Of a stretch of DNA of 64,000 bases, positions 8,866 through 64,000 are shown piece after piece. The DNA lies in the IMG/VR virus record IMGVR_UViG_3300021963_000094, positions 10,467 through 74,466 of that record; one strand, given 5' to 3'. Numbering within the stretch: position 1 is the first letter of the stretch; every line of letters starts with the position of its first letter. Source of the DNA: a virus. Under the pieces are notes generated by a model. It did not search any database. It was not told the origin of the DNA and was given only the letters and a program-made list of their open reading frames with translations. Position numbers and translations under genes: made by a program.

Positions 8866-9990
8866 ATGGCTAAGAAAAGACAATACACAAGAGACGAGTA
8901 TTCTCCGGAAGAAAGGGCTATTATGGACGAACTTTACGAAGGTCACTTTAGAGTAAATTTCGCAGATAACCCTGCCCAATCATATTCTAAGGAGCTAGAA
9001 GAAAATCAAGTTCTAAGTGTAAAAATCACACAGATCAGAGGAACCAGTGCAATAGGTGAAACGTCTGTTGGACAATCTGTTGCGATAGATTTAATGAAAG
9101 AAGAAAAAGCAATCAAGAGATTAGGATTCCCTGCACTTAATGTACAGGAAGGATCTCAGCTTGATGTTGTAATATTCAAAGATAAATCTGGAATGTATAA
9201 TGGATCTTTAGCAGCAGGCTATGAGAATTCATTAAAGACCGAATTATTAAATTCGATCAAGGAAGAGAAAACAGCATACACGGTGAGAATCGATTCAACA
9301 TGTCCTGGAGGATTTATGGTGAACCTTTCTGGTATCAAGTGTTTCTTACCTGGTTCATTAGCAGCAGCTAATAGAATTATAGATTTCCAATCATTTGTTG
9401 GAAAAACAATCAATATAATGATTGAGACTTACGATGAAAGAAGAGACATTTTTGTTGTTTCCTTCAAAAAGTATCTTAAGCATGTTATTGATGCTAAAGT
9501 GGAAGAATTATCTCTCACACAAAAATACACAGGTACAGTTACAGGTATGTCAACTGCAGGTGTATTCGTTGAATGGGATGAGTATTACACTGGTTTAATC
9601 CCAGCAGAGGAATTTGATAATGCCGGAATTAAAATGGATCTAAACGCAGGAGGAAGCGTGTCATTCTATGTTTCTGACTTCAGAAATCCAAACAGAATAG
9701 TATTAAGATTAAACCCACCTGAAGGAAAAGATAGGGACTTACAGGAACTTAAAGACATTTCTTTATTGGAAGATAAAGAAAATAAAATATATAGAGGGAC
9801 AGTGTCAAAGGTGAAAAACTTCGGGGTTTTTGTAAAACTTGAAAATAACATCGTTGGCCTTGTTGAAAAGGACTATTTGGCTGGAAATCCAAAAGATTAT
9901 GAAGTAGGATCTGAAATATCCTGCACTATCATGGACGTAGAGCTACAGAGTTCAAAACTCTATTTAAAGGAAAAAATTGAAAATACTTGA
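8866..9990 (+). CDS. Ribosomal protein S1-like multi-S1-domain RNA-binding protein
   Basis: About four S1 (OB) repeats: GGFMVNLSGIKCFLPGS (like rpS1 domain 2), YTGTVTGMSTAGVFVE...GLIP and YRGTVSKVKNFGVFVKLE...GLV. Confidence 0.88.
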   Translation: MAKKRQYTRDEYSPEERAIMDELYEGHFRVNFADNPAQSYSKELEENQVLSVKITQIRGTSAIGETSVGQSVAIDLMKEEKAIKRLGFPALNVQEGSQLDVVIFKDKSGMYNGSLAAGYENSLKTELLNSIKEEKTAYTVRIDSTCPGGFMVNLSGIKCFLPGSLAAANRIIDFQSFVGKTINIMIETYDERRDIFVVSFKKYLKHVIDAKVEELSLTQKYTGTVTGMSTAGVFVEWDEYYTGLIPAEEFDNAGIKMDLNAGGSVSFYVSDFRNPNRIVLRLNPPEGKDRDLQELKDISLLEDKENKIYRGTVSKVKNFGVFVKLENNIVGLVEKDYLAGNPKDYEVGSEISCTIMDVELQSSKLYLKEKIENT

Positions 9991-35824: not shown

Positions 35825-35835
35825 GATATATATAA
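35825..35835 (+). promoter_or_regulatory. Putative late promoter motif (GATATATATAA)
   Basis: Recurrent motif upstream of the fibre gene at 35852. Confidence 0.65.
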
Positions 35836-35851
35836 AAAGTAATACTTAGAG

Positions 35852-48986: not shown

Positions 48987-48995
48987 GATATATAA
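48987..48995 (+). promoter_or_regulatory. Putative late promoter motif (GATATATAA)
   Basis: Recurrent motif upstream of 49007. Confidence 0.65.
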
Positions 48996-49006
48996 AATAA
49001 AAAAAG

Positions 49007-49699
49007 ATGAGACATCTCCAATCATTCGAATTACTAGAGAGCAGTAATAAATATGTTAAGTCGTATACCCCTGAAAAATACAAAAAAATCACGGGTAGTG
49101 ATTCTGCCCCTGGATTTACTGGGTGGATTTATAATATTTTCATGTCTCTGAAGAGTAATTTTGAGAATATGGATAATTTCTTTATGAGTAATATCTACAT
49201 GAAAGATATCCACGGAAAACCAATCGATACCGGAATGGGATGGCTAATTGGACAGGCTGGGTCACTTGCCACGTCTGTTGCAGCCAAAATTTTCGAGCCT
49301 AGTGAATTTATTAGCACAGATTGGAAATCTTCTGACGGATCTACTATAACCCCTCCAACATCAGATAAAGATGTGAAACCGGAGCATCTTAGATTGTTCA
49401 ACGATAATTTCGCAAAAAAAGATCTTCCTAATATCAAGAACGACGGGGATATGAAAAACTGGATTACAGACTTCTATAAAAAATCAGGCACCCCTCCAGG
49501 AAAGATAAGATGGGTAGATGATGCAGCATCAACTGCTAGCAACACATACTACAATAGATCAATGGGATATGGCGGAACGGAGGTAGAATCTGGATCGGGA
49601 GGAGTAGGAACCGCAATGAATATAGCAAGCGCAGCATCATCTTTACTTCCGATTGGGAAGGCAGGTAAGATAGCAGCTACTGTATTAAAAAAATCATAA
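49007..49699 (+). CDS. Hypothetical protein with CTS-like N-terminus (candidate internal head protein)
   Basis: Starts MRHLQSFELLES; preceded by the late motif. Confidence 0.6.
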   Translation: MRHLQSFELLESSNKYVKSYTPEKYKKITGSDSAPGFTGWIYNIFMSLKSNFENMDNFFMSNIYMKDIHGKPIDTGMGWLIGQAGSLATSVAAKIFEPSEFISTDWKSSDGSTITPPTSDKDVKPEHLRLFNDNFAKKDLPNIKNDGDMKNWITDFYKKSGTPPGKIRWVDDAASTASNTYYNRSMGYGGTEVESGSGGVGTAMNIASAASSLLPIGKAGKIAATVLKKS

Positions 49700-49712
49700 T
49701 ATAAAAAAATAA

Positions 49713-49976
49713 ATGAAAAAAGTATCACAAATTCAGGAAAGCTTAAAGGTACAAAAAGCTACTGCAATCTCTAAATTGGAAGAGACGAATAAGTATCTGA
49801 CTTTTGCTAAAGCGTACTATAAGAAGCATGGCGTTTCTGGTCCTTTCGATGAGAAATTCAAAGGCAATAAAAAAGCACAAGAAAAATTCATGGAAGAATT
49901 AGGAAAGGCCTGGTCTGATTACAAGAAAGAAAAAGGAATCGAAACTAAGTCTAGCAAACCTTGGGGTAAGAAGTAG
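49713..49976 (+). CDS. Small basic hypothetical protein
   Basis: 87-aa Lys-rich ORF starting MKKVSQIQES. Confidence 0.65.
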   Translation: MKKVSQIQESLKVQKATAISKLEETNKYLTFAKAYYKKHGVSGPFDEKFKGNKKAQEKFMEELGKAWSDYKKEKGIETKSSKPWGKK

Positions 49977-49993
49977 GAATAAAATCCAAAAAC

Positions 49994-50422
49994 ATGTACG
50001 ATATATTTTTCCCTATTATTGAGCACTATACAGGAACTGTGGTATCGAAGGTAAGAAGAATAGATGAACTAATTCTATTCCGAACCATACAGGGTCAAGC
50101 AGGTAAGATAGAGAGAAATTTATACGGAGATTGGGATTTATTGGTTGATGAGGAAAAAGTAGCTGAAATAGAAGATGTGTTATTTTCTATCTTTTGTGAG
50201 TCCAAGGATCAACCCCCAATTGACAAGTATTATAAAGAATTATTAAGATTAAAAAATAAAGGCGTATTGAATTATAAATCCAATGTGCTAGTAGATCAAC
50301 TAATAACTTCCATAGAATTTCTAATTCTACACATGGAAGTTCAATTAGAAGATCCTATAGCAATGGGACCTTATTATACATTCAGCCACAATGGAACTAA
50401 ACACGTTTTAGTATTAAATTAA
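49994..50422 (+). CDS. Hypothetical protein
   Basis: 142-aa ORF in operon context. Confidence 0.65.
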   Translation: MYDIFFPIIEHYTGTVVSKVRRIDELILFRTIQGQAGKIERNLYGDWDLLVDEEKVAEIEDVLFSIFCESKDQPPIDKYYKELLRLKNKGVLNYKSNVLVDQLITSIEFLILHMEVQLEDPIAMGPYYTFSHNGTKHVLVLN

Positions 50423-50426
50423 AAAT

Positions 50427-52403
50427 ATGGCAGGGATAAAACATTTAAGCGAGATTTACAAAAAACAAGGAGCGCAATTCCTTGATGATTTATTTGGAAA
50501 GGAATTAACAGTTTCTGAAAAATTAAATGGGATGAGCTTTTCTTTCGAGAAAAGTATCTTCGACGGATCTCTGTCTTTTTATAAAAGAGATCAGGTAAAT
50601 CCCATCTCAAAAATTGATCGTGTACTAATGAAGTACTACGAATCACCAATTTCACACATTCAGGAACTACCAGCATTAACTTTAGACGAAATCCCTAGCG
50701 GATGGAGATTTGGGATGGAATTTTTTATTAATCCTAGTCCAGTTTTAGTTTCCTATCAAAGAGTACCTAAAAATGGATTGGTTCTGACACATATTGTTGT
50801 TAAGAATCAATTCGGTGACGTTGAAAGAACTATCGTTGAAAAAGAAGAACTAGATTACTGGGCAGATCTTTTAGGCGTTGAAACACCACCTATCATATTT
50901 CAGGGTAAGCTATCTGACGAGCAAAAAGTATCAATTAATGATTTTGTTAATTCACCGCATGATAATCTTAAGAAAGATCACGGAACAGAAAGCTTTGCTA
51001 AATATCTTGTTACCATTTTAAATCCAGGGTTAAATAAAACATTCCTAAATGATTCTTTGGAAGAACCAATAGAGGGTGTGGTATTTAGATTTGGATCGAT
51101 TGATGGGACAGGAGAATCTTTCACTGCAAAGATATTAGATCCGGTTTTTGAAGATATCACAAGACAGAACAATGTAAAGAAGGTAAGTTATTTTCCAAGC
51201 GATATCTACGGAATTACTATACTAGAAGTGATGAACTACATCCTCGATAAAGGAGTTGATTCATTCTCATTTACCGGGGAGGATCCACAAGACAAATATA
51301 TTTCTTTTGTGTGTTCTGTGTTCAATTCATTCACTGATGAATATGGAGAAAAATATTTAGGACTTGATTTTCAAGAGCCTCAATTTTTAAAGCAAGAAGG
51401 ATTTGAATCAAATCACGATTTAATTCAAGATGAGAAAACAAGATCTTTAATTACTGATGATGAAAGCTATGAGTCTCTTTTCAAATTAATTCTTTCTGCT
51501 TTCAGAAAAATCAAGAAAAGACCTGGAGGGTTTTTCACACAGGGAGCTATTGAACAATTTAATTTATTGGTTAAAGAAATCTCCGAATACCTAAACAACA
51601 ATTCAATCGTTGTTGAATCTATCATTCCAACATTCGATCAATTCAGAAAGGTTAAAAAACCTTTCATTCCTCAAGAGGAAGAGGATGAAGAGGATATCGA
51701 AGATGAGGTTGAGGAAATTCCAAGAGATGAAGTTGTAGAAGAACCTGTAGAGAACCCGATCGAAGAACCAGAGGTTGAAATCGAGGAAGACCCAATAGGA
51801 GATGAAGTAGTTTTAGATCCAGAAGTTATTGATCAAATCAAAACAGCACTTGGACAAAATGAACCGATTTCACAGAAATCTGTAGAAGATGACGTTAGAA
51901 GAGTAAACATAGTGATTGGTAAATTCCAACCTTTCAACAACGGTCACTTAAAGATGATTAAAAAAGCAAATCAGAATAACGGATTACCTGTTGCTGTGTT
52001 TGTAATTAAACCAGGTCCACATAGCTTCATAGACGATCAAACGATGGACAAGATGATGGGAATAGTATCCAACGATCTTTCTGATGTGATAGACTCTGTT
52101 CATTATGTTGATGATGATCTTTTATCAACAGCTGTTCAAACCCTTGGAGATAAATATGAGCCCAAAACATTGACTGTTGGGAAGAAAAGATTGGATAATT
52201 ATTTGCTTCAAACAAGATCATTAAAGAAGAGAAAAAAGCTAAACCCTGCTTTTCAAATTCAAACTTCACCTGAATGGATCAATTCAATGGATGTATCCAA
52301 GACTATCCAAGAGAAAAATTACATGGAATTCAAAAAGAACGTTCCTAAATCTCTCTCCGGCCTTTGGGAGGAACTCACAAGATGCTACGATTCGTCTAAA
52401 TAA
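50427..52403 (+). CDS. Fusion of an RNA-ligase-like nucleotidyltransferase domain and a cytidylyltransferase-like (HxGH) domain
   Basis: N-terminal motifs SEKLNG, GMEFF, IEGVVF and TAKI; an acidic linker; C-terminal IVIGKFQPFNNGH. Confidence 0.7.
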   Translation: MAGIKHLSEIYKKQGAQFLDDLFGKELTVSEKLNGMSFSFEKSIFDGSLSFYKRDQVNPISKIDRVLMKYYESPISHIQELPALTLDEIPSGWRFGMEFFINPSPVLVSYQRVPKNGLVLTHIVVKNQFGDVERTIVEKEELDYWADLLGVETPPIIFQGKLSDEQKVSINDFVNSPHDNLKKDHGTESFAKYLVTILNPGLNKTFLNDSLEEPIEGVVFRFGSIDGTGESFTAKILDPVFEDITRQNNVKKVSYFPSDIYGITILEVMNYILDKGVDSFSFTGEDPQDKYISFVCSVFNSFTDEYGEKYLGLDFQEPQFLKQEGFESNHDLIQDEKTRSLITDDESYESLFKLILSAFRKIKKRPGGFFTQGAIEQFNLLVKEISEYLNNNSIVVESIIPTFDQFRKVKKPFIPQEEEDEEDIEDEVEEIPRDEVVEEPVENPIEEPEVEIEEDPIGDEVVLDPEVIDQIKTALGQNEPISQKSVEDDVRRVNIVIGKFQPFNNGHLKMIKKANQNNGLPVAVFVIKPGPHSFIDDQTMDKMMGIVSNDLSDVIDSVHYVDDDLLSTAVQTLGDKYEPKTLTVGKKRLDNYLLQTRSLKKRKKLNPAFQIQTSPEWINSMDVSKTIQEKNYMEFKKNVPKSLSGLWEELTRCYDSSK

Positions 52404-52408
52404 CTACT

Positions 52409-52434
52409 AAATCCTGCAATCGCAGGATTTTTTT
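52409..52434 (+). terminator. Rho-independent terminator
   Basis: AAATCCTGC-aatc-GCAGGATTT followed by a T-tract. Confidence 0.9.
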
Positions 52435-52455
52435 ACGTGGATATGTGGTACATTT

Positions 52456-52465
52456 GAATATATAA
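52456..52465 (+). promoter_or_regulatory. Putative late promoter motif (GAATATATAA)
   Basis: Recurrent motif between the terminator and the ATG at 52482. Confidence 0.7.
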
Positions 52466-52481
52466 AGCAAAAAACATAGGA

Positions 52482-53291
52482 ATGTCTAAATTAGTAAAAT
52501 GGAAAGACTATAGCAAAATCTACGAGGATGCTAATTCCAATACAGGTATCGATGAGGTAGCTGCCAAAAAAATACAAAAATGCCAGATTATTTTAATAAC
52601 CCAAGCGGCATTTTTTGGCCAGCTTTGCATGAATCTAAAATTCATAGAGGATAGAAATTTAAGATTCAAAACCATGGCTACCGACGGAATGAATATTTAT
52701 TATGATCCAGGTTTCGTTAATGATCACACGGATGCAGAAATTAGATGGGTAATATGTCATGAGATATTACACTGCTCTTTGCATCACTTTTTAAGAAAGC
52801 AGGCAAATCCTAGTATTTGGAATATGGCAGCTGATTATGAAATCAATCAATTGATAGATCCTAAAAATTATACATCTAAGCCAACTTATCAAAATGCTTT
52901 GGGAACAATGCCTTCTGGTGCTTTAGGTGGTTCTGGTGATAAAGATAAAGGATTTTTAAATGGCGATTACAAAGGTAAAGCAGCAGAGCAAATCTATCAA
53001 ATGCTCATAGAAAATAACACACAAGTACCTCCTGAAGAAGGGTGGAATTACGGAGGGGTTCAGCCTCCTGTCATGGTTTCTGCCCCTCCGGGATCTGGCG
53101 GTGGGAATGATGAAGATTATGGTGAAAAAGCAAAGGTTGGTGATTATGTTGCCTTACCTGGTGGAGGATACGGAAAGATCGAATCAATTGATCCTGCAAC
53201 AGGTGATGCTGATATTACACAAGTAACAGAGCCAGATTTGAGGTCAATGATTGAATCAAAAACGGGTAAAACAGTTAAAAAAATAAGCTAA
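52482..53291 (+). CDS. HEXXH putative metallopeptidase (DUF2201 N-terminal-like) with CTS-like N-terminus
   Basis: TMATDG..IYYDP.F, VICHEILHC and WNMAADYEINQ; begins MSKLVKWKDYSKIYE. Confidence 0.85.
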   Translation: MSKLVKWKDYSKIYEDANSNTGIDEVAAKKIQKCQIILITQAAFFGQLCMNLKFIEDRNLRFKTMATDGMNIYYDPGFVNDHTDAEIRWVICHEILHCSLHHFLRKQANPSIWNMAADYEINQLIDPKNYTSKPTYQNALGTMPSGALGGSGDKDKGFLNGDYKGKAAEQIYQMLIENNTQVPPEEGWNYGGVQPPVMVSAPPGSGGGNDEDYGEKAKVGDYVALPGGGYGKIESIDPATGDADITQVTEPDLRSMIESKTGKTVKKIS

Positions 53292-53301
53292 TTATAATAA
53301 T

Positions 53302-54231
53302 ATGAAATTTAGTGTAAAGGATTTAAGGAAAATTGAGGTTGAGTATGAGCCAACACCGCCACCACCTACCCCACCACCGGGTGAAGATCCACCCCCTCCA
53401 CTTCCCCCAATGCCACCGGGGGAAGAAAAACCATGGAATGAAAAACCAGATCCGAACGAAAAAGGTGGAGATGGCCCAGGCAAAGAGGGTCAAGGGACTA
53501 AACCTAAATTAGTGTCTAAGAAAATAGAATCTGAAGAAGATCTTAAAAAATTCTGGGAGTCTAAACTAGAAGAGGCAAAAGACAGACATGCTGGTGATAT
53601 TCCAGGAGAATTAATGAGAGCAATCGAAAAACTCCTGGGTGTTAAAGTTGATTGGAAACAGGAATTAAGAAAGATGATTAGCAGCTTGAGTAGCAAGGCT
53701 GATTATTTCTTACCTAATAGAAGATTTCTTGCAACTGGTGCTCAATGGGGATCTAAAAAAAGAAAGGAAGCTTTTGAATCTTTGGTAATTATAGCGGACA
53801 CATCAGGATCTGTTAGTCAAAAGGAACTAGAACAATTTGTTTCCGAAGCTATGGATATAATGGAATCATTTAAGCCTAAGGAGACTTATCTTCTCTGGTG
53901 CGATACCACAGTATATGAACCAGTTGACGTGATTAAAAAAGGAGAAACCTGGAATTATCGCAAAGCGTATGGCGGAGGTGGAACAAGTTTCATCCCCCCT
54001 GTTGCTTGGATAGAGGAAAATATCATCAAGAAGGGTAAGAAATTAGGACCTGTACTTTTCTTTACTGATGGCGAGCCAAATACAGGGCCTAACGGCGGAT
54101 GGCCAAAAGAGACAGAATATAGTATTAGAAGCTATGTAAATAAATTTTTCTGGATTATACTAGGAGAAGGCGGGGTACCAAGAAAGCACGTAAAAGTTCC
54201 TTTCGGGAAGAGAATTGATCTTATCATGTAA
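53302..54231 (+). CDS. VWA-like domain protein (DUF2201 C-terminal-like)
   Basis: VDWKQELR, PNRR, MIDAS DTSGS, GGGGTSF and FFTDG; Pro-rich N-terminal linker. Confidence 0.88.
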   Translation: MKFSVKDLRKIEVEYEPTPPPPTPPPGEDPPPPLPPMPPGEEKPWNEKPDPNEKGGDGPGKEGQGTKPKLVSKKIESEEDLKKFWESKLEEAKDRHAGDIPGELMRAIEKLLGVKVDWKQELRKMISSLSSKADYFLPNRRFLATGAQWGSKKRKEAFESLVIIADTSGSVSQKELEQFVSEAMDIMESFKPKETYLLWCDTTVYEPVDVIKKGETWNYRKAYGGGGTSFIPPVAWIEENIIKKGKKLGPVLFFTDGEPNTGPNGGWPKETEYSIRSYVNKFFWIILGEGGVPRKHVKVPFGKRIDLIM

Positions 54232-54234
54232 TAA

Positions 54235-54243
54235 GATATATAA
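54235..54243 (+). promoter_or_regulatory. Putative late promoter motif (GATATATAA)
   Basis: Recurrent motif; ATATATAAAGCAAAA is identical to the sequence upstream of 52482. Confidence 0.7.
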
Positions 54244-54264
54244 AGCAAAATAACAAAATAAAAA

Positions 54265-55809
54265 ATGGCAAGAATTAAGAAGTTTAGCGACTATGTGAAC
54301 GAGGACTACTCGTTCAAAGGAGCTATACAAAAAGGAAAGGAATTATTTGCAAAAGCTGGTGACTGGGTTTCTGGCTTTATCTCAAAATTAAAGCAAGGTA
54401 TTTTTCCTGCAATTCCAGAGGGACCTAAAGCAGGAGCTCCTATGGTTGCATATCTATCACCAAGCGGAAAAAGATCAGTGGTGGATCAGATTAAAAATTT
54501 ATACGGGGTTACAGCTGAGGAATCCGCAGAAGCTACCTTAGATTTGGATAATCAACAAATAGAGGAAGCTATGAAGGATCTATCATATCCAGGAAAAGAC
54601 GTTATTAATATCAATGCTGCAGAGTTAGCTGATGAAATCATAACAAGATACGAAACATTAGTAGACGGTGGTTTCAGCAAGCCTATCTTCATATACGGAG
54701 CACCTGGTATTGGAAAAACTGAAATCGTTGGACAAGCATGTGATGCTTTAGGTATAGACCTAATGACAATAGATTTACAGTTCATGGACCCTGCAGACTT
54801 TTTAGGTATACCTTCGGTTGTAGATATTGCTTCTGAAGATCCAAAAGGTGAAGGTGTTACTAGAACAAACCCTCCTATTTGGTTGCCAAGAGATAATGGA
54901 CCAGAAGGTAAAGGCGGTATCCTATTTTTTGACGAGATGAACAGAGCTCAACAACCGGTTAGAACTGGTATGATGAACTTGGCTCAAGGTAGAAGAATTA
55001 ATACATATAAGCTTCCTTCAAATTGGTTAATCGTAGCAGCTGGAAACAGAGAAAGCGATGATAGACCAGGTGAAGTTGAACCAATCAGTACTGCACTTGC
55101 GGATCGTTTCTCTATCTACAATTATGTACCGACAGTAAAAGGATTCCAGGACTATGTGACAACATCAGAGGTTCCTTTAAAAGGAGCTATGGGTGCTAGA
55201 CCAAGAGAGGTTGTTATTCCTGAATTATTATCATTCTTAGAATACTCTGACGATTATTTCCACAATTTGGATCCGCAATCTCCTGATGTTAAATTTGCTA
55301 CACCTAGAGGTTGGATCGATGCTTCTAAGCTTCTTTATTCCAAAATGAAAAGATTAGAAAAACAAGGAAAAGTTAGCAACGAGATTTCTGCAGATGAACT
55401 TAAGAAGGTATTCCAAACGGAAGTTGGATTCTCTGCAGCTAATGCTTTTGTTAAATTCTATGAGGTAGTACAAAGTATTCCTCTTGCTGATGTTATGAAA
55501 GTATTTGATGATCCAAATTCAGCTCCAGTTCCTAAACCGATTCAAAAATCAGATCCTGGTAAATTTAATACAACATACGAGCCAGATATTATGTTTGCTA
55601 CAATAGCAGCTATTGTTTCTAAGTCTGAGAAAATTAAACCTCTTACAGCTGATCAGTATTCAAACGCTGTTGATTATGCAATCAGATTGGATTCAGCATC
55701 ATACGGAGCTTCCTTCATAGCTATGTTAAATTCCAAGCACGATTACATTAAACTTGATAGAGCATACACAATGCATCTTAAGAAGTTCACGTCACACTAC
55801 GGTCTTTAA
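54265..55809 (+). CDS. MoxR-related AAA+ ATPase with CTS-like N-terminus
   Basis: Walker A GAPGIGKT, Walker B ILFFDEMN, IVAAGN, ALADRF and TPRGW; begins MARIKKFSDYVNE. Confidence 0.9.
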   Translation: MARIKKFSDYVNEDYSFKGAIQKGKELFAKAGDWVSGFISKLKQGIFPAIPEGPKAGAPMVAYLSPSGKRSVVDQIKNLYGVTAEESAEATLDLDNQQIEEAMKDLSYPGKDVININAAELADEIITRYETLVDGGFSKPIFIYGAPGIGKTEIVGQACDALGIDLMTIDLQFMDPADFLGIPSVVDIASEDPKGEGVTRTNPPIWLPRDNGPEGKGGILFFDEMNRAQQPVRTGMMNLAQGRRINTYKLPSNWLIVAAGNRESDDRPGEVEPISTALADRFSIYNYVPTVKGFQDYVTTSEVPLKGAMGARPREVVIPELLSFLEYSDDYFHNLDPQSPDVKFATPRGWIDASKLLYSKMKRLEKQGKVSNEISADELKKVFQTEVGFSAANAFVKFYEVVQSIPLADVMKVFDDPNSAPVPKPIQKSDPGKFNTTYEPDIMFATIAAIVSKSEKIKPLTADQYSNAVDYAIRLDSASYGASFIAMLNSKHDYIKLDRAYTMHLKKFTSHYGL

Positions 55810-55827
55810 TAGAACCAAATTAATATC

Positions 55828-55854
55828 AAAACCCCTGAATTTCAGGGGTTTTTT
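55828..55854 (+). terminator. Rho-independent terminator
   Basis: AAAACCCCTGA-att-TCAGGGGTTTT plus Ts. Confidence 0.9.
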
Positions 55855-55876
55855 GTGGAGCTAAGTTTTATCTTTT

Positions 55877-55886
55877 GAATATATAA
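55877..55886 (+). promoter_or_regulatory. Putative late promoter motif (GAATATATAA)
   Basis: Recurrent motif between the terminator and the ATG at 55904. Confidence 0.7.
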
Positions 55887-55903
55887 AGAAAAAGAACATC
55901 TAA

Positions 55904-56443
55904 ATGAAATTCATTAAAGATTTTAAAGCATACAAAATAAACGAGGAAGCTGGATATGGCAACGACTATTTTGTTGATCAAAAAGTTGAAAAATCCCAAT
56001 ACTACTTTTTTAAAGTTGGTGAGGGCGAAGAAGAAATTGGCCTAATCGTTAAAATCGGAAAATTTGCAAAATCTGCTATCATTTCAGAGAACGAAAAAAG
56101 CTATGGTGTTATTCACATAGAACCTATCGATGTTAATGACATGGATGATTATTTGGTGAATGACAGCGAGTATAGATCAAGAGAGGATGACAAATTCTCT
56201 ATCCCTAGCGATTTACTGGCTCAAACCTTTGACATCATCGAAAAAGCAATGGACAATTACCTAGAGAAGAATCCAAAGGTAACTAAGTTCTATGATGAGA
56301 TGTTGGAGAATCTAGAAATGACCCCGGAAGAATACACAAGCTTTGTTACACCTAAGATCGAAGATTGGTCAGAGGGAAGATGGAGTGTTCAGTCAGGATC
56401 CACACAAAGCGTTCTAATCTACATGAAAACATCCCATGAGTAA
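55904..56443 (+). CDS. Hypothetical protein with CTS-like N-terminus
   Basis: Begins MKFIKDFKAYKINE. Confidence 0.7.
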   Translation: MKFIKDFKAYKINEEAGYGNDYFVDQKVEKSQYYFFKVGEGEEEIGLIVKIGKFAKSAIISENEKSYGVIHIEPIDVNDMDDYLVNDSEYRSREDDKFSIPSDLLAQTFDIIEKAMDNYLEKNPKVTKFYDEMLENLEMTPEEYTSFVTPKIEDWSEGRWSVQSGSTQSVLIYMKTSHE

Positions 56444-56753
56444 TTTAAAGAAATATGGTGAATTTATCAATGAGTCTTTAACTCCTGTCATGTACATGAG
56501 TGTTAAGAACCCATTGAAAAATTCAATAGTTAAATTCTTATACGAAAAAGACAAAGCCACCCGAAAGGAAATCATGGAGTTTGCCGCAACCCTTGGCGAA
56601 AGCGGACAATCCGTGGATAGAAGATGGATCTCTAGAAACAAGCAATTAATCAAATGTGTTGTCTCTGAAGAGGGTCCAAACCACTATTCTCTAACCAAAT
56701 TAGGGAAAAGATTTGCTAAAAGCCTCATAGTTAATGAAACTAAAGGGGCATAG
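56436..56753 (+). CDS. Winged-helix-like putative DNA-binding protein with CTS-like N-terminus
   Basis: Begins MSNLKKYGEFINE; wHTH-like pattern IVKFLYEKDKATRKEI...HYSLTKLGKRF. Confidence 0.6.
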   Translation: MSNLKKYGEFINESLTPVMYMSVKNPLKNSIVKFLYEKDKATRKEIMEFAATLGESGQSVDRRWISRNKQLIKCVVSEEGPNHYSLTKLGKRFAKSLIVNETKGA

Positions 56754-56763
56754 TCAATATAAT
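56736..56763 (+). promoter_or_regulatory. Putative GAAAC-N17-TATAAT promoter upstream of the Hc1-like gene
   Basis: Bipartite motif with a perfect TATAAT and a 17-nt spacer. Confidence 0.6.
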
Positions 56764-56779
56764 TAATAAATATTTTTTT

Positions 56780-56962
56780 ATGGAAAGCTACGAAAAATTA
56801 GTTGCACTCTTAGAGTCAATGAAAGAAAACGTTGAAAAATTCTTTGTTAAAGGCAATAAATCAGCCGGAACAAGAGTTAGAACTCAAGCTCAAGAAATCA
56901 AGAAATTAGCACAAGAACTTCGTTTAGATGTTCAGAATGCTAAGAAGACAACTGAGCAATAA
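56780..56962 (+). CDS. Histone H1-like (Hc1 family) nucleoid protein
   Basis: KGNKSAGTRVR...EIKKLAQELR matches the Hc1 N-terminal/Bacteroidota 'histone H1' motif. Confidence 0.8.
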   Translation: MESYEKLVALLESMKENVEKFFVKGNKSAGTRVRTQAQEIKKLAQELRLDVQNAKKTTEQ

Positions 56963-56975
56963 GATAAAACTTTAG

Positions 56976-57000
56976 AAGCCAGCCTTAGGGCTGGTTTTTT
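56976..57000 (+). terminator. Rho-independent terminator
   Basis: AAGCCAGCC-ttag-GGCTGGTTT plus Ts. Confidence 0.88.
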
Positions 57001-57009
57001 GTGTCCATT

Positions 57010-57070
57010 GATATATAGAACATCAAAATTTGAAACAACCTCATTGATTATATCTTTAATTGGTATATAA
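57010..57070 (+). promoter_or_regulatory. Two putative late promoter motifs (GATATATAG, GGTATATAA)
   Basis: Motif copies at 57010-57018 and 57062-57070, upstream of 57083. Confidence 0.5.
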
Positions 57071-57082
57071 AAACAAAAAATT

Positions 57083-57301
57083 ATGGCTTATTATCAATGT
57101 AAAGTAACGTTTGATTCTGGTGAAACAAACAAACAAGGAAAACCAATGATCACTAAAACCGTGATGCTAGTAGAGGCTACAGGTGTAACCGAGGCAGAAG
57201 CTAGAATCCACGACCACTTAAAATCCGATATTTTGGAATTTGAAGTGACCTCGGTTGCCTTGTCTAACATCGAATCGGTGTTGCAAGAAAAAGACAAGTA
57301 A
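57083..57301 (+). CDS. DUF4494-like protein (Bacteroidota-associated family)
   Basis: YYQCKV...LVEATGVTEAEARI...FEVTSV...I. Confidence 0.75.
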   Translation: MAYYQCKVTFDSGETNKQGKPMITKTVMLVEATGVTEAEARIHDHLKSDILEFEVTSVALSNIESVLQEKDK

Positions 57302-57305
57302 AAAA

Positions 57306-57503
57306 ATGAAAAATCCTAAATCTCCTGTAGAAGATCAAATCCAAGAGGGAAACTCAGAAACCCATAACTATGAGGTTCCTGATAGTCCTGTTAAAATCCC
57401 AGACAATGATACTGGATTTAAAATGGTTAAGAAAAACTACAGGAGATTTATTTGGACAATGGATGAGCATTCCAAGAAAAGAGTTTCTGGTAAAGATAAA
57501 TAG
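57306..57503 (+). CDS. Small hypothetical protein
   Basis: Likely start is the ATG at 57306 (MKNPKSP...), just after the previous stop. Confidence 0.6.
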   Translation: MKNPKSPVEDQIQEGNSETHNYEVPDSPVKIPDNDTGFKMVKKNYRRFIWTMDEHSKKRVSGKDK

Positions 57504-57520
57504 TTATATTAACACGAACT

Positions 57521-57874
57521 ATGATTAATGAGAAATCACTCTCCAGAACTCAACAAAGATTATTTGGTCAGGCATACGGAGTAAAGATGTGGAAAAAGAC
57601 CAACGGCAAGAAAGGAATCAATCCCACCGATATTAATCCCAAATACAAAGAAGAGATAACAAATTTAGCTAATAGCATGTCCTTAGCTAAGCTGAAAGAG
57701 TTTGCTGAGACCAAACATAAGAAATTACCAGAAGAGGTAGAAGAAGGAGTATTAAAGGACATTCATTATCGTTTAAGCCCAGATGCACAATACGATCCTT
57801 CCAAAGAAAAATCTAGAAGACCCGGTAATCTAGCAGACTATAGAGAATTTATAAAGAAGAATAAAATTAAATAA
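57521..57874 (+). CDS. DUF3008-like small basic protein
   Basis: S..QQRLFG.A...SMS...LKEFAETKHKKLPE. Confidence 0.65.
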   Translation: MINEKSLSRTQQRLFGQAYGVKMWKKTNGKKGINPTDINPKYKEEITNLANSMSLAKLKEFAETKHKKLPEEVEEGVLKDIHYRLSPDAQYDPSKEKSRRPGNLADYREFIKKNKIK

Positions 57875-57875
57875 T

Positions 57876-58337
57876 ATGGCAGACCAAAAGATCAATGAAG
57901 GATGCGGATGTGGCGGTGGATCGTCTAATGCACAACCATCAGCTAATATTGTTAGAGAACAAGATCCAGCAGTTGGAAAACAAGCTTCCCTATTGGATGG
58001 AAGAACTGGAACAATCAATGATTCTATTAGAAACTCTAGAGGGGAAGTTATTGGATATGTTCTAAATAACGACAATGGTGCTTTCAGAGTATTCAAGGAG
58101 AAAGTTACCAACATTTATGAAAGCGAAGGAGCAATGGCTTCTTTAGATGCTACCCCTGGCATGGGAGAGGTTGCACCGCCAACAAAAGATTCAGTTGGAT
58201 CTGGTGATGTGTTTCCATCTCTGACTGCAGGAACCGGAGCAGCTAAGAAAGGTAAAAAGAAAAAAGAATCTAAGTCTATAAGTAATCCAGTAATGGGATG
58301 GAAAGAATTCCAGAAAAATATGCTTAAGAGTCAATAA
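57876..58337 (+). CDS. Hypothetical protein with SH3/KOW-like segment
   Basis: 153 aa; VGKQASLLDGRTGTI...; starts MADQKINE. Confidence 0.6.
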   Translation: MADQKINEGCGCGGGSSNAQPSANIVREQDPAVGKQASLLDGRTGTINDSIRNSRGEVIGYVLNNDNGAFRVFKEKVTNIYESEGAMASLDATPGMGEVAPPTKDSVGSGDVFPSLTAGTGAAKKGKKKKESKSISNPVMGWKEFQKNMLKSQ

Positions 58338-58442: not shown

Positions 58443-58802
58443 ATGAATACAAGAATCTATTCACCAGCAACTAGACTATTGGATATCTACAATGGTTTAG
58501 ATTTATTCCTAGGTAATAATCTACAGGAAGAAACCCAAATCCTTTCGTTCGATGTACCTGGATTCAGCAAAGACGATCTTTCAGTTGTGATTGATCAGGA
58601 TGAAGCTTTATTAACCATTAAGGGAGAAAAAGAAATCAACGGAAAATCAAGATCAATCAATAAGAGTATCAGGGATTATTCTTTTAGAAATCTAGATCTA
58701 AAGAAAGTAGAAGCTAAAGTTGAAAATGGAATTTTAACCATTGATCTAAGTGAAGCTGAAGATAAGAACAAATTGAGAAAAAAACAAATTTCTCTAAACT
58801 AA
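58443..58802 (+). CDS. Small heat shock protein (Hsp20/alpha-crystallin)
   Basis: DVPGFSKDDLSV...LTIKGE...VEAKVENGILTIDL. Confidence 0.92.
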   Translation: MNTRIYSPATRLLDIYNGLDLFLGNNLQEETQILSFDVPGFSKDDLSVVIDQDEALLTIKGEKEINGKSRSINKSIRDYSFRNLDLKKVEAKVENGILTIDLSEAEDKNKLRKKQISLN

Positions 58803-58820
58803 ATCTCTTACATTTGGTGT

Positions 58821-59210
58821 GTGGAAAAACTCGATCTAATACAAACACACTATATAGGGAATCCTTGGAAGATCATGATTTCGTGCATTCTCTTAAATCA
58901 AACTAGTAATCAACAGGTTCGTCCAGTGATTACTAAGTTCTTCGATGTTTTTCCCACACCAAATTCTTTAAACGAATCTCACATACCCGCCATCTCCGAA
59001 ATCCTTAAATCCACTGGATTTCAAAACATCAAGGCAAAGAGAATACTGGATTTCACCAAAGCATGGAATTCGGGTGAAAGAGATCCTAACAAATTTCCAG
59101 GAATAGGTCCATACGGTAGAGATGCCTGGAAAATCTTCATTGAGGAAAAAATAGACTTCGTCCCCGCGGATAAAAAACTATCTGCCTATCTTGCCCAATT
59201 AAATCAATAG
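58821..59210 (+). CDS. HhH-GPD DNA glycosylase, MBD4-like catalytic domain
   Basis: GTG start; PWKIMISCILLNQT, FF..FPTP, GFQNIKAKRI, HhH FPGIGPYGRDAWKIF and P.DKKL..Y. Confidence 0.85.
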   Translation: MEKLDLIQTHYIGNPWKIMISCILLNQTSNQQVRPVITKFFDVFPTPNSLNESHIPAISEILKSTGFQNIKAKRILDFTKAWNSGERDPNKFPGIGPYGRDAWKIFIEEKIDFVPADKKLSAYLAQLNQ

Positions 59211-59262: not shown

Positions 59263-60672
59263 ATGATAATCGACATTGAAAATCTCGGAGAATCTTTAAG
59301 GGTTTCTCATTACACGGAAGAAGGCGATTTAGCCTACTTAGATTTAAAGATACCAGTATCCGAAAGATACACATGGAGAAAGTGTTCGGCTTCCGATAGG
59401 AGTCGTGAAAAGGGTTGGGCTTCTTGGGACGGTTTTCCTGTTAAGAAGCAATCAACTTTAAAATACGACAAATATCGGCAAGTTGAATTACTTGAATCAT
59501 TCGACCCTGAAATCACAAAGCCTCTCTGGGCAACGCAAACCCCCAAAAAATACTTTGTCGATATTGAGGTTGAGATCACAGACAACAGAGCAGATTCGCT
59601 TGACACCCTACGTGCTAACAACAAGGTACTAACAATTGCAATTGCATCATCCACTGGTAAGATCTTAGTTCTTGGTTTAGATAAAATGGATTCTCCAAAG
59701 ATTCTAAATATTGAAAAGAGAGTTAACGATCACTTTAAGGATTTACCTTACGATACCAAATGGACTTTCAATTATAGATCTTTTGAAAGTGAGTTTGATA
59801 TGATCTATACGTTCATGGCAAAGCTCATGCACAAAATGCCACTCATCACAGGATGGAACTGGTTTGGATATGACTGGCCTTATTTAACTAATCGTGCTCG
59901 TAAATTAGGTATTGATCCTAAAATATCTTCACCAAGTGGTGTGCTTCTAGGTAAAGATCAAATTCCAATGCACGTACTAATGGTCGATTACATTCAGATC
60001 TATAAGAAATGGGATAGAGTAATTAAGATCAGGGAATCAGATTCATTAGCATATGTTTCCAATGCAGCACTCGGAGTTTCTAAGATCACATACAATGGAA
60101 CATTAAAAGATTTATATGAATCAGATTTTGAGACGTATATCTTTTATAACGCCATTGACTCCTGTCTAGTACATTACATTGATCAGAAGTTAAATACGCT
60201 TGCTACGTTCTTTAAAATAGCAAACGTAAGTGGTGTAGAGATTAACAGGGCTTTGTCTCCTGTCTGGACAACTGAAGTATTAATGCTCCGAAAATTCAGA
60301 CAAAAAAATCGTGTCATAGTATACGATAGAAAGGATGAAGAACATGTTAGATTCGAAGGAGCTTATGTTAAACAGCCCATTAAAGGATTACACGAATGGG
60401 TAGTATGTTTTGACTTTGCTTCACTATATCCTAATACAATGATGCAATGGGGATTATCACCAGAGATATTCATAGGAAAGAATCTAGCAAGCCCACCGGA
60501 GGGTGCAATCAAAACTGCAGGAGGTGCATACTTCTTACCTAAGGAAGGCGAAGAACCGGTACTAAGAGATGTACTTACAACATTATACACGATGAGAAAA
60601 TCCGCTAAGAAGAAATATGTTGAATGCGAGACTAAAATCATGGAATTACAAGAACTATTAAAAACAAAATAA
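59263..60672 (+). CDS. Family B DNA polymerase, N-terminal part (3'-5' exonuclease plus motif A); split gene
   Basis: ExoI VDIEV, ExoII GWNWFGYDWPYL, ExoIII YNAIDS, FEGAYV and motif A DFASLYP. It ends in the fingers helix and lacks motifs B and C. Confidence 0.9.
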   Translation: MIIDIENLGESLRVSHYTEEGDLAYLDLKIPVSERYTWRKCSASDRSREKGWASWDGFPVKKQSTLKYDKYRQVELLESFDPEITKPLWATQTPKKYFVDIEVEITDNRADSLDTLRANNKVLTIAIASSTGKILVLGLDKMDSPKILNIEKRVNDHFKDLPYDTKWTFNYRSFESEFDMIYTFMAKLMHKMPLITGWNWFGYDWPYLTNRARKLGIDPKISSPSGVLLGKDQIPMHVLMVDYIQIYKKWDRVIKIRESDSLAYVSNAALGVSKITYNGTLKDLYESDFETYIFYNAIDSCLVHYIDQKLNTLATFFKIANVSGVEINRALSPVWTTEVLMLRKFRQKNRVIVYDRKDEEHVRFEGAYVKQPIKGLHEWVVCFDFASLYPNTMMQWGLSPEIFIGKNLASPPEGAIKTAGGAYFLPKEGEEPVLRDVLTTLYTMRKSAKKKYVECETKIMELQELLKTK

Positions 60673-60673
60673 T

Positions 60674-61153
60674 ATGGCTAACGTAGACAATTCATGCGCA
60701 CACCTAGAAGTTGAAGATGTATTCAATGAATCTAAAAACACCCTTGCTGATCTTTATAATTTGCAAAAGGATATTCAAGAGAATGTGTATGGTTATAATT
60801 TCGAAGAGCTAAGAAATAAACCATTAAATGAATTCAGACAATTCTTTGATTGGAATTATCATGCAATTCAAGATGAATTGAGGGAAACATTTGATGCACT
60901 AGGAGGGATCAAAGATGGCATTGGAAATGGTGTTTGGAAACCATGGAAAAAGGTATACCACGAAAAAGCTCCTAATATGACTTTTGAATCATTAACTGAT
61001 GACGACAAGAAAGAACTTCAAATGGAACTAATTGATATTCAACACTTTCTATTTAACATGATGTTAGCAGCAGGATTAACACCTTCAGATCTAATGAACA
61101 TGTATTTTGCTAAAAACAAAGAAAATAGAGAAAGACAAAAGAGAGGTTATTAG
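60674..61153 (+). CDS. Dimeric all-alpha dUTPase/dCTPase (T4 gp56-like)
   Basis: DELRE, WKPWK, ELIDIQHF and YFAKNKENRERQKRGY. Confidence 0.88.
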   Translation: MANVDNSCAHLEVEDVFNESKNTLADLYNLQKDIQENVYGYNFEELRNKPLNEFRQFFDWNYHAIQDELRETFDALGGIKDGIGNGVWKPWKKVYHEKAPNMTFESLTDDDKKELQMELIDIQHFLFNMMLAAGLTPSDLMNMYFAKNKENRERQKRGY

Positions 61154-61274: not shown

Positions 61275-64000
61275 TTGGCACAGAAAACCAGACCGGAACT
61301 TAGGATACGATTTCAAACGGGTGATATACCAACCCAACAAGACTTCGAAGATTTATTCGACAGTTTCTATAACATATTAGAAGATCCCCTTAATACTGCA
61401 GTGGGACCGACCGGAGCAGCAGGTCCAATGGGTGCTCAAGGTGATCCCGGAGAGACAGGAGCACAAGGTGCTCAAGGTGGTCCTGGTGTAAACGGAGCTC
61501 AAGGAGCAACCGGACCAACTGGTCTTCAAGGAATAGGCGGAGCACAGGGATATGCAGGATCCGACGGAGCACAAGGAGCCAAGGGAGGTACTGGTGCACA
61601 AGGAGCTGCTGGTGCAGGAGCGCAAGGAGCAGCTGGACCACAAGGAGCAGCAGGTTCTGCCGGATCTCAAGGTTTAGATGGTGCTGATGGAGCACAGGGT
61701 TCAAAGGGAGATACAGGAGCGCAAGGTTCAAAAGGCGATGCTGGTTCAACAGGAGCCCAAGGATCTAAAGGTGATGCTGGATCTACGGGAGCACAAGGTT
61801 CAAAGGGAGACACAGGATCCCAGGGTTTAAAAGGCGATACAGGATCACAAGGATCTGCTGGTGTTGGCGTACCTACTGGCGGAACTCAAGGGCAAATTCT
61901 AGCAAAAAATAGTAACGGAGACTACGACACATATTGGATAACTAATACTGGTGGAACTAGTGGTGGTTCAGGAGCACAGGGTGACACAGGAGCACAGGGT
62001 GACACAGGAGCACAAGGAGCACAAGGAGCACAAGGATTATCAGGAGCTCAAGGTTCAAAGGGTGACACGGGAGAACAAGGATTATCAGGAGCTCAAGGCT
62101 CAAAGGGTGACACCGGAGCACAGGGATTATCAGGAGCTCAAGGTTCAAAGGGTGACACTGGAGCACAGGGATTATCAGGAGCTCAAGGAGCTAATGGTTC
62201 CGATGGAGCACAGGGATCACAAGGAGCAACTGGTTCTGATGGTGTAGACGGAGCACAAGGAGCAACTGGTTCTGATGGTGTAGACGGAGCACAAGGAGCT
62301 AATGGCTCCGATGGAGCACAAGGAGCAGATGGTATAGATGGAGCACAAGGTGCTATCGGATCACAAGGAGCAACTGGTTCTGATGGTGTAGACGGAGCAC
62401 AGGGTTCTGATGGAGCACAAGGAGCAACTGGTTCCGATGGAGCACAAGGAGCAGATGGTATAGACGGAGCACAAGGATCTAATGGAGCAGACGGAGCGCA
62501 AGGATCTAATGGTATAGACGGAGCACAAGGAGCAACTGGTTCCGATGGAGCACAGGGTTCTGATGGAGCACAAGGAGCTAATGGTTCCGACGGAGCTCAA
62601 GGAGCTAATGGAGCAGACGGAGCACAGGGAGCTAATGGTTCTGATGGAGCACAAGGATCTAATGGAGCAGATGGTATAGATGGAGCTCAGGGAGCAACTG
62701 GTTCTGATGGAGCTCAGGGAGCAACTGGTTCTGATGGAGCTCAGGGAGCAACTGGTTCTGATGGAGCTCAGGGAGCAACTGGTTCTGATGGAGCTCAGGG
62801 AGCAACTGGTTCTGATGGAGCACAGGGAGCAACTGGTTCCGATGGAGCACAGGGAGCAGATGGTATAGATGGAGCGCAAGGAGCAACTGGTTCTGATGGA
62901 GCACAGGGAGCAACTGGTTCTGATGGAGCACAGGGAGCAGATGGTATAGATGGAGCGCAAGGTGCTGATGGAGCACAGGGATATACTGGATTACAGGGTG
63001 AACAGGGAGCGCAAGGTGCTGAGGGGGCGCAAGGTACTGATGGAGCACAAGGATCGATCGGAGCAGACGGAGCACAAGGATCTAATGGATCTGATGGAGC
63101 ACAAGGAGCAACCGGTTTTGACGGAGCACAAGGAGCAGAGGGAGCACAGGGAGCAACGGGTTCTGATGGAGCACAAGGAGCAACTGGTTTCGATGGAGCA
63201 CAGGGAGCAACGGGTGCTGAAGGAGCACAAGGAGCTAACGGATTCGACGGAGCTCAAGGAGCAGAAGGTGCTTCTGGGACATCCGGAATATCCGGTGTTG
63301 ATGGAGCACAAGGAGCAGAGGGAGCACAAGGAGCAGAGGGAGCACAAGGAGATTCTGGAGCAGATGGAGCACAGGGAGCGCAGGGATTTTCTGGTCTGCA
63401 GGGAGATACTGGAGCACAGGGATCAACCGGTTCTGATGGGGCACAAGGAGATTCTGGAGCAGACGGAGCACAAGGAGCGCAGGGATTTTCTGGTCTACAG
63501 GGTGACACTGGAGCACAGGGAGCAACGGGTTTCGATGGAGCACAAGGAGATACCGGAGCACAAGGAGCAACAGGTTCCGATGGAGCACAAGGAGCAACAG
63601 GTTCCGATGGAGCACAAGGAGATCAAGGTCTTCAAGGAGCACAAGGTGACACAGGAGCACAAGGTGACACAGGAGCACAAGGTGACACAGGAGCACAAGG
63701 TGACACAGGAGCACAAGGAGATCAAGGTCTTCAAGGAGCACAAGGTGACACAGGTCTTCAAGGAGCACAAGGTGACACAGGAGCACAAGGTGACACAGGA
63801 GCACAAGGTGACACAGGAGCACAAGGTGACATAGGAGCACAGGGTGACACAGGTCTTCAAGGAGCACAAGGTGACACAGGTCTTCAAGGAGCACAAGGAG
63901 ATCAAGGTCTTCAAGGAGCACAAGGAGATCAAGGTCTTCAAGGAGCACAAGGAGATCAAGGTCTTCAAGGAGCACAAGGTGACACAGGAGCACAAGGTGA
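61275..64000 (+). CDS. Long collagen-like (GAQ-GXY) tail fibre/whisker protein, 3'-truncated by the window edge
   Basis: Not in the ORF track because it has no stop in the window. TTG start gives [31 protein letters not shown], then Gly-X-Y repeats in the same frame up to base 64000. Confidence 0.9.
61404..64000 (+). repeat. Collagen-encoding tandem repeats (GGAGCACAA/GGAGCTCAG-based 18-45 bp units)
   Basis: Blocks of [30 protein letters not shown] and GAQ-GDQ-GLQ. Confidence 0.95.

Follow-up and report, generated by a model that had tools for sequence, protein, structure and literature searches.

Why should neighbouring genes whose products are otherwise unrelated begin with the same short peptide? 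The question is raised by a locus at positions 49,007 to 58,337 of a 64,000-nucleotide stretch of virus DNA (hereafter the window), which represents bases 10467-74466 of one 74,466-bp IMG/VR virus contig (IMGVR_UViG_3300021963_000094) rated as ~26% of a complete genome. A preliminary description of this locus had seen a peptide resembling the capsid-targeting sequence (CTS) of phage T4 at the start of eight open reading frames (ORFs), and had read their products as a head-internal, protease-processed and injected payload with a reusable address tag. Here we find that such a tag is real, conserved and modular, on fewer genes than first listed. We suggest that it is probably a T4-type capsid-targeting propeptide, which would dock in the prohead core via a scaffold-like unit and be cut after Glu by an S77 protease; that the tagged proteins are then retained in the head and ejected into the host is less certain than docking and cleavage.

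All eight listed ORFs do start where they had been placed, and four of them, named here by their first base in the window, carry the tag in strong form: 52482 (MSKLVKWKDYSKIYE/D, where the slash marks the candidate cut), 54265 (MARIKKFSDYVNE/D), 55904 (MKFIKDFKAYKINE/E) and 56436 (MSNLKKYGEFINE/S). Common to these four is the pattern M-x-x-[IL]-K-x-[FYW]-x-[DE]-[FY]-(0-2)-[IV]-[NY]-E, and with a conserved variant in 49007 the tag, 11-15 residues long, is borne by five neighbouring unrelated genes. Among the other three, the start of 57876 is ambiguous (see below), the MKKVSQIQE of 49713 shows no aromatic pattern when orthologues are compared, and the 'MINE' of 57521 reads MLSE and MPAV in its orthologues and is thus due to chance. 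The similar internal and C-terminal peptides that had been pointed out are look-alikes without the closing [ILV]-x-E and so fall outside the tag system. That baseplate and replication proteins start differently, by contrast, was borne out by the N-termini in the window.

The nearest annotated relatives of the contig are uncultured huge phages, headed by LR756500.1 (462 kb), with a DNA polymerase that is 38% identical, and followed by further LR75xxxx records and the Lak phages. For orthologue comparison we used two syntenic IMG/VR relatives (G001, G002) and also G003 (IMGVR_UViG_3300008110_010000; 219 kb, 79% complete), which was matched by both DNA-polymerase and AsnB-like queries and has 50 of 66 ORFs in common with the window contig, in the same order and at 71% mean identity. 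Enrichment of the tag at N-termini over background is clear. With the gapped pattern fitted to the four window N-termini and its own internal frequency taken as the expectation, matches were found at 4 of the 66 N-termini of the window contig against 0.10 expected (P = 5e-6), and the identical pattern, unfitted to LR756500.1, matched 26 of 670 ORFs there against 1.07 expected (P = 5e-27). Tagged ORFs number 4/54 in G001, 3/77 in G002 and 8/230 in G003 (expected across all five genomes, 0.1-1.1). The 30 tagged proteins of the window contig and LR756500.1, once their tags are removed, fall into 23 unrelated BLAST clusters. A weight matrix built only from homologues of the ATPase encoded by 54265 gave its highest non-self score among ~23,000 windows to the start of 56436, in the same register and at 14.8 versus 4.4 for the best internal window.

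Could such a peptide be a functionless by-product of gene starts in this genome? Lys, Asn, Ile, Phe, Tyr and Glu all have AT-rich codons, and the contig is 35% GC and lacks Shine-Dalgarno sites, as might be expected if the likeness stemmed from biased codon usage where genes begin, from some constraint on how translation is initiated or from a common DNA element. Yet the register and order of the tag residues are fixed, substitutions are conservative at the protein level, and the pattern is ~40-fold less frequent internally than at N-termini in the window contig and ~24-fold less in LR756500.1. The copies of the tag use different codons, moreover, and the longest DNA word they have in common is 8 nt, so that the signal resides in the peptide and not in the DNA, and an origin as a DNA repeat or translation signal can be rejected. 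Given also that the tag is conserved in homologues down to 36% identity, we consider a peptide with no function extremely improbable.

Alignments of the individual families indicate that the peptide is under purifying selection. For the ATPase, 104 of 121 aligned sequences (the query and 120 homologues, the most distant being those at 36% identity) are tagged by the pattern, the typical form being M-x-[KR]-R-I-x-N-F-x-[DE]-F-[VI]-N-E-[SGD], with F7, N12 and E13 each at least 90% conserved. At the putative cleavage site P3 is Val, Ile or Leu in 102 of these 104, and P1 is Glu in 104/104, a residue that the tag pattern itself requires. The family of 55904 (41 matches, 36 with the N-terminal part) keeps both a docking part, M[KR][FYH][IL].x[F]..[YH] (M-K-F-I-K-x-F-x-x-Y), and a closing [LIV]-x-E, mostly I-N-E, with M1, F7 and E14 invariant. 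The linker from the docking part to the [LIV]-x-E is up to 7 residues longer than that of the query (9 longer in the G003 orthologue); because it varies while both ends are kept, these would be two separately selected elements. The closing site lies close to a conserved AGYGNDYF, and in nearly all members immediately before (E/D)AGYGNDYF. The variant start of 49007, M[RK]HL[QK]x[YF]ELLE/SS, is identical in 13 of 14 homologues, those with the N-terminus present, down to 49% identity; the exception is one 165-aa form that starts further in, and the G003 orthologue is more canonical (MKYIRSYALYE/SS). Tags are also kept by the 56436 orthologues of G001, G002 and G003 and by the 52482 orthologues of LR756500.1 (MKYIKSYENFIFE/N) and G003 (MGKLSNFENSQKSPLLE/N).

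Is the tag part of the enzymes it precedes? In G002 the ATPase orthologue is without its whole 101-residue N-terminal extension and the peptidase (52482) orthologue has a different N-terminus, its tag lost, while the G002 orthologues of 55904 and 56436 keep theirs. This pattern indicates that the tag is modular, unneeded for the enzyme folds and lost jointly from two partner enzymes. AlphaFold2 models likewise predict tags that are disordered and outside the folds. By predicted local distance difference test (pLDDT), residues 1-21 of 55904 score <50 and its fold (22-179) has a mean of 82; in the ATPase, values <50 at 1-27 and 82-103 surround a small domain at ~30-81, with the AAA+ core beginning at ~104.

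The border of that core coincides with a candidate second maturation site, I-E-E101/A. Glu occupies the aligned position in 96 of the 104 tagged homologues, with P3 Ile, Leu or Val in 73 and P1' Ala in 62, whereas a clade without the extension has D-Q at this junction and the ATPase forms of G002 and P0015 start exactly after it. If E101 is indeed a maturation site, the whole extension would be a propeptide, as in SPN3US (PMC5694885). A hidden Markov model of the 101-residue extension, searched against the whole library, retrieved nothing beyond members of the ATPase family, versions of this N-terminal part that were short or truncated, and two false matches of low complexity, so the extension beyond the tag is family-specific. 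Profile comparison of the extension with G003 ORF 133762, the product of which is described below, gave a weak 38-column match with a probability of 15%.

With what would such a tag dock? The preliminary description had proposed a comparison with the cleavage sites of capsid and scaffold proteins. The window contig (74 kb, ~26% of the genome) carries no head genes, and no S77 protease was found on it or on G001; syntenic G003 supplied the comparison. Its head module is T4-type, with two gp20-like portals, a gp23-like capsid protein (PF07068, E = 2e-40), a gp55-like late sigma factor (phrog_234, E = 6e-17) and an S77 (T4 gp21-type) prohead protease (PF03420, 34 bits; phrog_207, E = 3e-37). The C-terminal half of this protease consists of at least nine tandem 14-residue repeats with the core Y-S-E-Y-L-A-E (Y-[SAGT]-[EKD]-Y-[LIV]-A-E/N), which is the core of the tag; the units include KYADYLAE/N, KYGEYLAE/N, YSKYLAE/N, YSEYIAE/N, YTEYVAE/S and YSEYLAE/N. 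The motif [FYW]..[FYW][ILV].E has 28 matches in the 70,241 aa of G003, 8 of them in the 413-residue protease ORF (0.12 expected, P = 9e-13), and a matrix from seven N-terminal tags alone ranked this ORF first of 230 for internal matches. Six further relatives (G004-G009) have the identical protease fusion, with 12-14 tag-core matches per protease ORF; the genomes of five are complete, at 319-435 kb, and bear terminal repeats. An apparent G009 ORF with the start MDYSEYLAEK, which a second look failed to locate, was left out of account. The LR756500.1 protease, too, has a repeat tail fused to it (NYVKYVAE, DYVGYVANE, QYMEHIAE); an S77 protease and a T4-type head were seen in G003, in G004-G009 and in LR756500.1.

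The second gene after the gp23-like capsid gene of G003, ORF 133762, begins MKKYSEFISE/S, identical at 7 of 10 positions to MKTYQEFIAE. The latter, which we read at the N-terminus of T4 ipII and ipIII in NC_000866 (MKTYQEFIAE/A), is the T4 CTS (PMC8442874; PMC9958956). S77-type proteases of T4, phiKZ, 201phi2-1 and SPN3US all cut after Glu, at an x-X-E motif (PMC5694885).

These observations bear on the possibility that the peptide is a docking or sorting signal leading away from the capsid, to a cytoplasmic complex, another phage-made compartment or timed degradation. Such a role would also suit a motif that is N-terminal, short, disordered and amphipathic and is borne by many proteins unrelated to one another, and packaging is itself a reading drawn from sequence comparison. 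However, no protein other than the prohead protease-scaffold contains several internal copies of the motif, a gene beside that for the capsid protein starts with a close match to the T4 CTS, and Glu closes the motif in every family aligned; the ATPase or the peptidase, were either of them the receptor of the tag, would need no tag itself. A destination other than the capsid is therefore rather unlikely in our estimate.

A promoter-like motif, ATATATAAA, associates the tagged genes with virion genes. The 74-kb contig has six exact copies of it, each on the + strand and followed by a start codon at a distance of 19-37 nt. Copies stand at 48988-48996 (19 nt before the ATG of 49007), at 52458-52466 before 52482 (a terminator hairpin, 52409-52430, lies upstream of the motif), at 54236-54244 before 54265, and at 55879-55887 before 55904 (a hairpin, 55828-55852, lies upstream); another at 35828-35836 precedes a tail-fibre-like gene (35852-38119), which ties the motif to structural genes. 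Genes 12259 and 40996 have variants of the form ATATATAA upstream, and between 22588 and 23388, which are divergent, there are ATATATAT forms. The exact motif and its close variants are thus found before baseplate and tail-fibre genes as well as before 49007, 52482, 54265 and 55904, and before no replication gene in the window. Counted as ATATATA[AT] within 50 nt upstream, the motif precedes 3 of 4 tagged versus 8 of 62 other genes of the window contig (P = 0.013) and 9 of 26 versus 62 of 644 in LR756500.1 (P = 7e-4), where it also precedes the capsid and protease genes. A scan for sigma-70 promoters gave fewer sites than in shuffled sequence. The late promoter of T4 is TATAAATA, and the motif together with the gp55-like sigma factor of G003 resembles T4 late transcription, which would suggest late timing. 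The earlier idea of a reusable address tag is strengthened by this late-type promoter common with structural genes and by the G003 protease tail built of the tag motif.

Which proteins would be addressed in this way? All the genes in question lie on the + strand. Gene 49007 (49007-49699; variant tag at residues 1-11, MRHLQSFELLE/SS, 49007-49039) encodes a 230-aa protein of unknown function that matched nothing in Pfam or PHROG; an identical protein is encoded on a contig of 112 kb. Gene 52482 (52482-53291; tag at residues 1-15, 52482-52526) encodes a putative metallopeptidase, the first part of a split DUF2201_N domain (PF13203, E = 6e-23). The rest of that domain (PF13203 at positions 151-258) and a VWA-like domain (PF09967, E = 3e-14) are encoded by its untagged partner 53302 (53302-54231), which is presumably carried along in a complex with the tagged peptidase. 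This division of one domain over two ORFs 10 nt apart (52482-54231) is kept in G001-G003, while in LR756500.1 the tagged peptidase part is fused to the VWA part as one 491-aa protein. Gene 54265 (54265-55809) encodes the MoxR-type AAA+ ATPase (AAA_5 PF07728, E = 4e-7; phrog_1297, E = 1e-49; Walker motif GAPGIGKT at residue 145), the 101-residue extension of which (54265-54567) comprises the tag (residues 1-13, 54265-54303), the small domain (~30-81), a disordered acidic linker (82-103) and I-E-E101/A. A MoxR/VWA/DUF2201 set is thus present, with the AAA_5 ATPase preceded by genes matching PF09967 and PF13203.

The product of 55904 (55904-56443; 179 aa, tag at residues 1-14, 55904-55945) possibly has a GNAT-like fold: the top rows in a VIA-align comparison of its model are mostly GNAT chains, yet with Z of 6.9 or less, and Foldseek against the PDB gave no match at E 0.001 or below. 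Gene 56436 (56436-56753), encoding a 105-aa protein of unknown function with its tag at residues 1-13 (56436-56474), overlaps the end of 55904 and is therefore probably co-transcribed with it. The ambiguous case, 57876 (57876-58337, 153 aa), starts MADQKINE/G, with Q-x-I-N-E; this start is kept in one orthologue only (G002, MGTEQINE/E) and is statistically no different from chance. It is possible that it represents a minimal I-N-E propeptide; compare the starts of T4 gp24 (MAKINELLRE/S) and of the LR756500.1 capsid protein (MIKLINE/A). Tagged proteins of the relatives further include a second ATPase/peptidase pair, a CHAP-domain hydrolase, six leucine-rich repeat (LRR) paralogues, a PNK-type phosphatase and a nucleotidyltransferase-like protein; in G003 the CHAP-domain hydrolase is found at 62492-63286 and the second tagged MoxR ATPase/DUF2201_N peptidase pair at 68645-71186. 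The cell-wall hydrolase of the CHAP type, the LRR proteins and the PNK-type phosphatase are plausible as virion-delivered enzymes.

We propose the following course of events for the window phage. The tagged proteins would be made late in infection, from the same TATA-type late promoter as the virion genes. Their tag would have two parts, an amphipathic element at the N-terminus for docking (M-x-x-[IL]-K-x-[FY]-x-x-[FY]) and a closing [LIV]-x-E cleavage site, usually [IV]-N-E, and would be a copy of one unit of the 14-residue scaffold-like repeat in the S77 prohead protease of the lineage. It would co-assemble with the scaffold repeats inside the prohead, and the protease would then cleave each repeat, and likewise the tag, on the C-terminal side of its Glu; the ATPase would probably be cut also at the second conserved I-x-E/A site that closes its extension. 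The mature cargo, namely the MoxR ATPase, the DUF2201 metallopeptidase with its VWA partner, possibly a GNAT-like protein and two proteins of unknown function, would be retained inside the head and may accompany the DNA into the cell. Of the payload first proposed, what stands is thus a T4-CTS-like tag on unrelated proteins ending in a Glu-type site, while 57521, 49713 and the internal or C-terminal peptides drop out.

The nature of this cargo invites another explanation, in which the tag recruits proteins to the prohead core for head assembly or maturation, by a chaperone-like MoxR/VWA/peptidase machine that is afterwards degraded or expelled like scaffold, with no injection. MoxR/VWA pairs elsewhere act as maturation chaperones (CbbQ/CbbO and GvpN-type systems), and mimicry of the scaffold repeat would fit a passing presence in the core; in T4 the scaffold proteins gp22, gp67 and gp68 are indeed degraded (PMC9958956). 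But conserved sites number just one or two per protein and lie at domain borders, not across the folds, and the cargo of the relatives (CHAP hydrolase, LRR proteins, PNK phosphatase) looks host-directed. The ATPase and peptidase of G002 dispense with the tag, so the tagged forms are not obligatory head-assembly factors. For these reasons we regard a purely assembly-related role as improbable.

Several points weigh against the capsid-targeting propeptide that we prefer. The link to the protease-scaffold is borrowed from relatives at 71% and ~35% identity, and the likeness of tag and scaffold repeat is firm only in the window's own lineage: in LR756500.1 the protease-scaffold ORF failed to come out on top in the matrix test, and the resemblance can be seen there only by eye. 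At P2 the tags have Asn but the scaffold repeats Ala, and [LIV]-x-E is common by chance, at ~2 per 100 residues. Homologous MoxR/VWA pairs of N4-like and other phages are untagged and are not known as virion proteins. The late timing of the promoter is something that we infer, and all the phages concerned are uncultured, their packaging, cleavage and ejection being read from sequence.

A broader generalization may be offered tentatively, as an idea that we hold to be somewhat less than an even bet. According to this, the huge T4-related phages of an entire clade would direct to their capsids a broad and rapidly evolving enzyme repertoire (the MoxR-VWA-metallopeptidase machine, hydrolases of the cell wall, LRR binders and enzymes of RNA repair); the tag would be one protease-scaffold repeat by which cargo co-polymerises, and the same cut would release it. 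If so, whether an enzyme is synthesized after infection or arrives together with the DNA would depend on the gain or loss of 13 codons, as in the window phage versus G002, and the joint loss of the tag from ATPase and peptidase in this sister lineage would be a natural experiment on what packaging contributes. Proteins injected by uncultured huge phages, likely first-strike factors of counter-defence or takeover, would be predictable from metagenomes without culture. The origin of a capsid-loading signal would be explained as a copy of the scaffold's own unit of self-association and cleavage, and the tag would be a portable means of bringing foreign proteins into large capsids, a use to which the T4 CTS has already been put. 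In the literature that we searched, no publication describing such tags in huge phages was found.

Other features of the locus and of the genomes compared are as follows. The adjacent small proteins of 57521-57874 and 57876-58337 end in a common motif, [YW]-x-E-F-x-K-N, which is kept in 57521 orthologues and in part (W-E-T-F-R-K-N) in the G002 orthologue of 57876. ORF 50427-52403 fuses an RNA-ligase-like part to a cytidylyltransferase-like part (both weak Pfam matches) via an acidic linker, and its junction carries a tag-like peptide, IIPTFDQF (FKTFGDYIIMKE in the LR756500.1 orthologue), which may be the fossil tag of a formerly separate gene. The two portal genes of G003 are tandem gp20-like copies in one genome (110635-113994; PF07230, E = 6e-66 and 6e-62).

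The remainder of the window encodes a baseplate hub (3517), a baseplate wedge (12633) and several very large structural proteins, as well as the replication and recombination genes RuvC-like (44004), SSB (44730), helicase (47437) and the N-terminal half of a split family-B DNA polymerase (59263). In the baseplate module, the protein of 8866-9990 has an S1 RNA-binding/OB domain at its C-terminus (PF00575, E = 8e-16). The G002 orthologue of this protein is the source of a weak S77 match (11.7 bits, sub-threshold), which we do not find credible as it sits in this baseplate-module protein with an S1 domain. Directly before the polymerase, 58443-59210 holds an Hsp20/alpha-crystallin gene and an HhH-GPD base-excision-repair-like gene. 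The polymerase ORF itself (59263-60672) covers the exonuclease domain but no more than one third, the first, of the polymerase domain; since the identical split is found in G002, G003 and LR756500.1, it is not an assembly error. A small dUTPase_2/MazG-like gene (60674-61153) follows directly. The last ORF (61275-63998; at least 908 aa) is made of collagen-triple-helix repeats, has 54% GC versus 35% elsewhere and runs off the contig end; G000, G002 and G003 all end within it, which makes it a recurrent assembly breakpoint.

How does the tag compare with known ways of filling a capsid? The CTS of T4 IPII and IPIII was reportedly described by Mullaney and Black in 1996. As in T4, where MKTYQEFIAE is removed by the gp21 prohead protease (PMC8442874, PMC9958956), the window tag is at the extreme N-terminus of unrelated proteins, has 10-15 residues and ends in a Glu-type site ([L/I]-x-E in T4). 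The core, aromatic-x-[DE]-aromatic-[ILV]-x-E, is common to both (YGEFINE in 56436, YQEFIAE in T4), and in 100 kb of T4 it is found at the N-termini of ipII, ipIII and two others among 158 ORFs. The lineage, judging from the relatives, also has the gp21-type S77 protease, gp23-like capsid protein, gp20-like portal and gp55-like late sigma factor of T4. Unlike the T4 CTS, the window tag is 3-5 residues longer N-terminally, P2 is usually Asn and the linker from docking part to site is variable. Its carriers belong to many more families and are enzymes (MoxR ATPase, metallopeptidase, CHAP hydrolase, LRR protein, phosphatase) where those of T4 are small basic proteins, and its scaffold partner is joined to the protease as a tail of tandem repeats where T4 has a separate gp22; the function proposed here, moreover, is deduced from the genomes.

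In the giant phages phiKZ, 201phi2-1 and SPN3US, ejection or inner-body proteins have propeptides of ~100 residues or more that are cut after Glu by an S77-family protease; these are thought to direct incorporation into the prohead, and paralogues have identical N-termini (PMC5694885, PMC10052503). The 101-residue extension of the ATPase, with its two candidate sites, fits this description, but most window tags are just 11-15 residues long, and these giant phages use A/S/G-x-E and have no common short tag across unrelated proteins. By analogy only, the cargo-loading peptides of encapsulins are also short, disordered, terminal peptides that address unrelated enzymes into an HK97-fold shell; they are usually C-terminal, however, bind the shell protein, escape proteolytic removal and do not resemble the tag in sequence.

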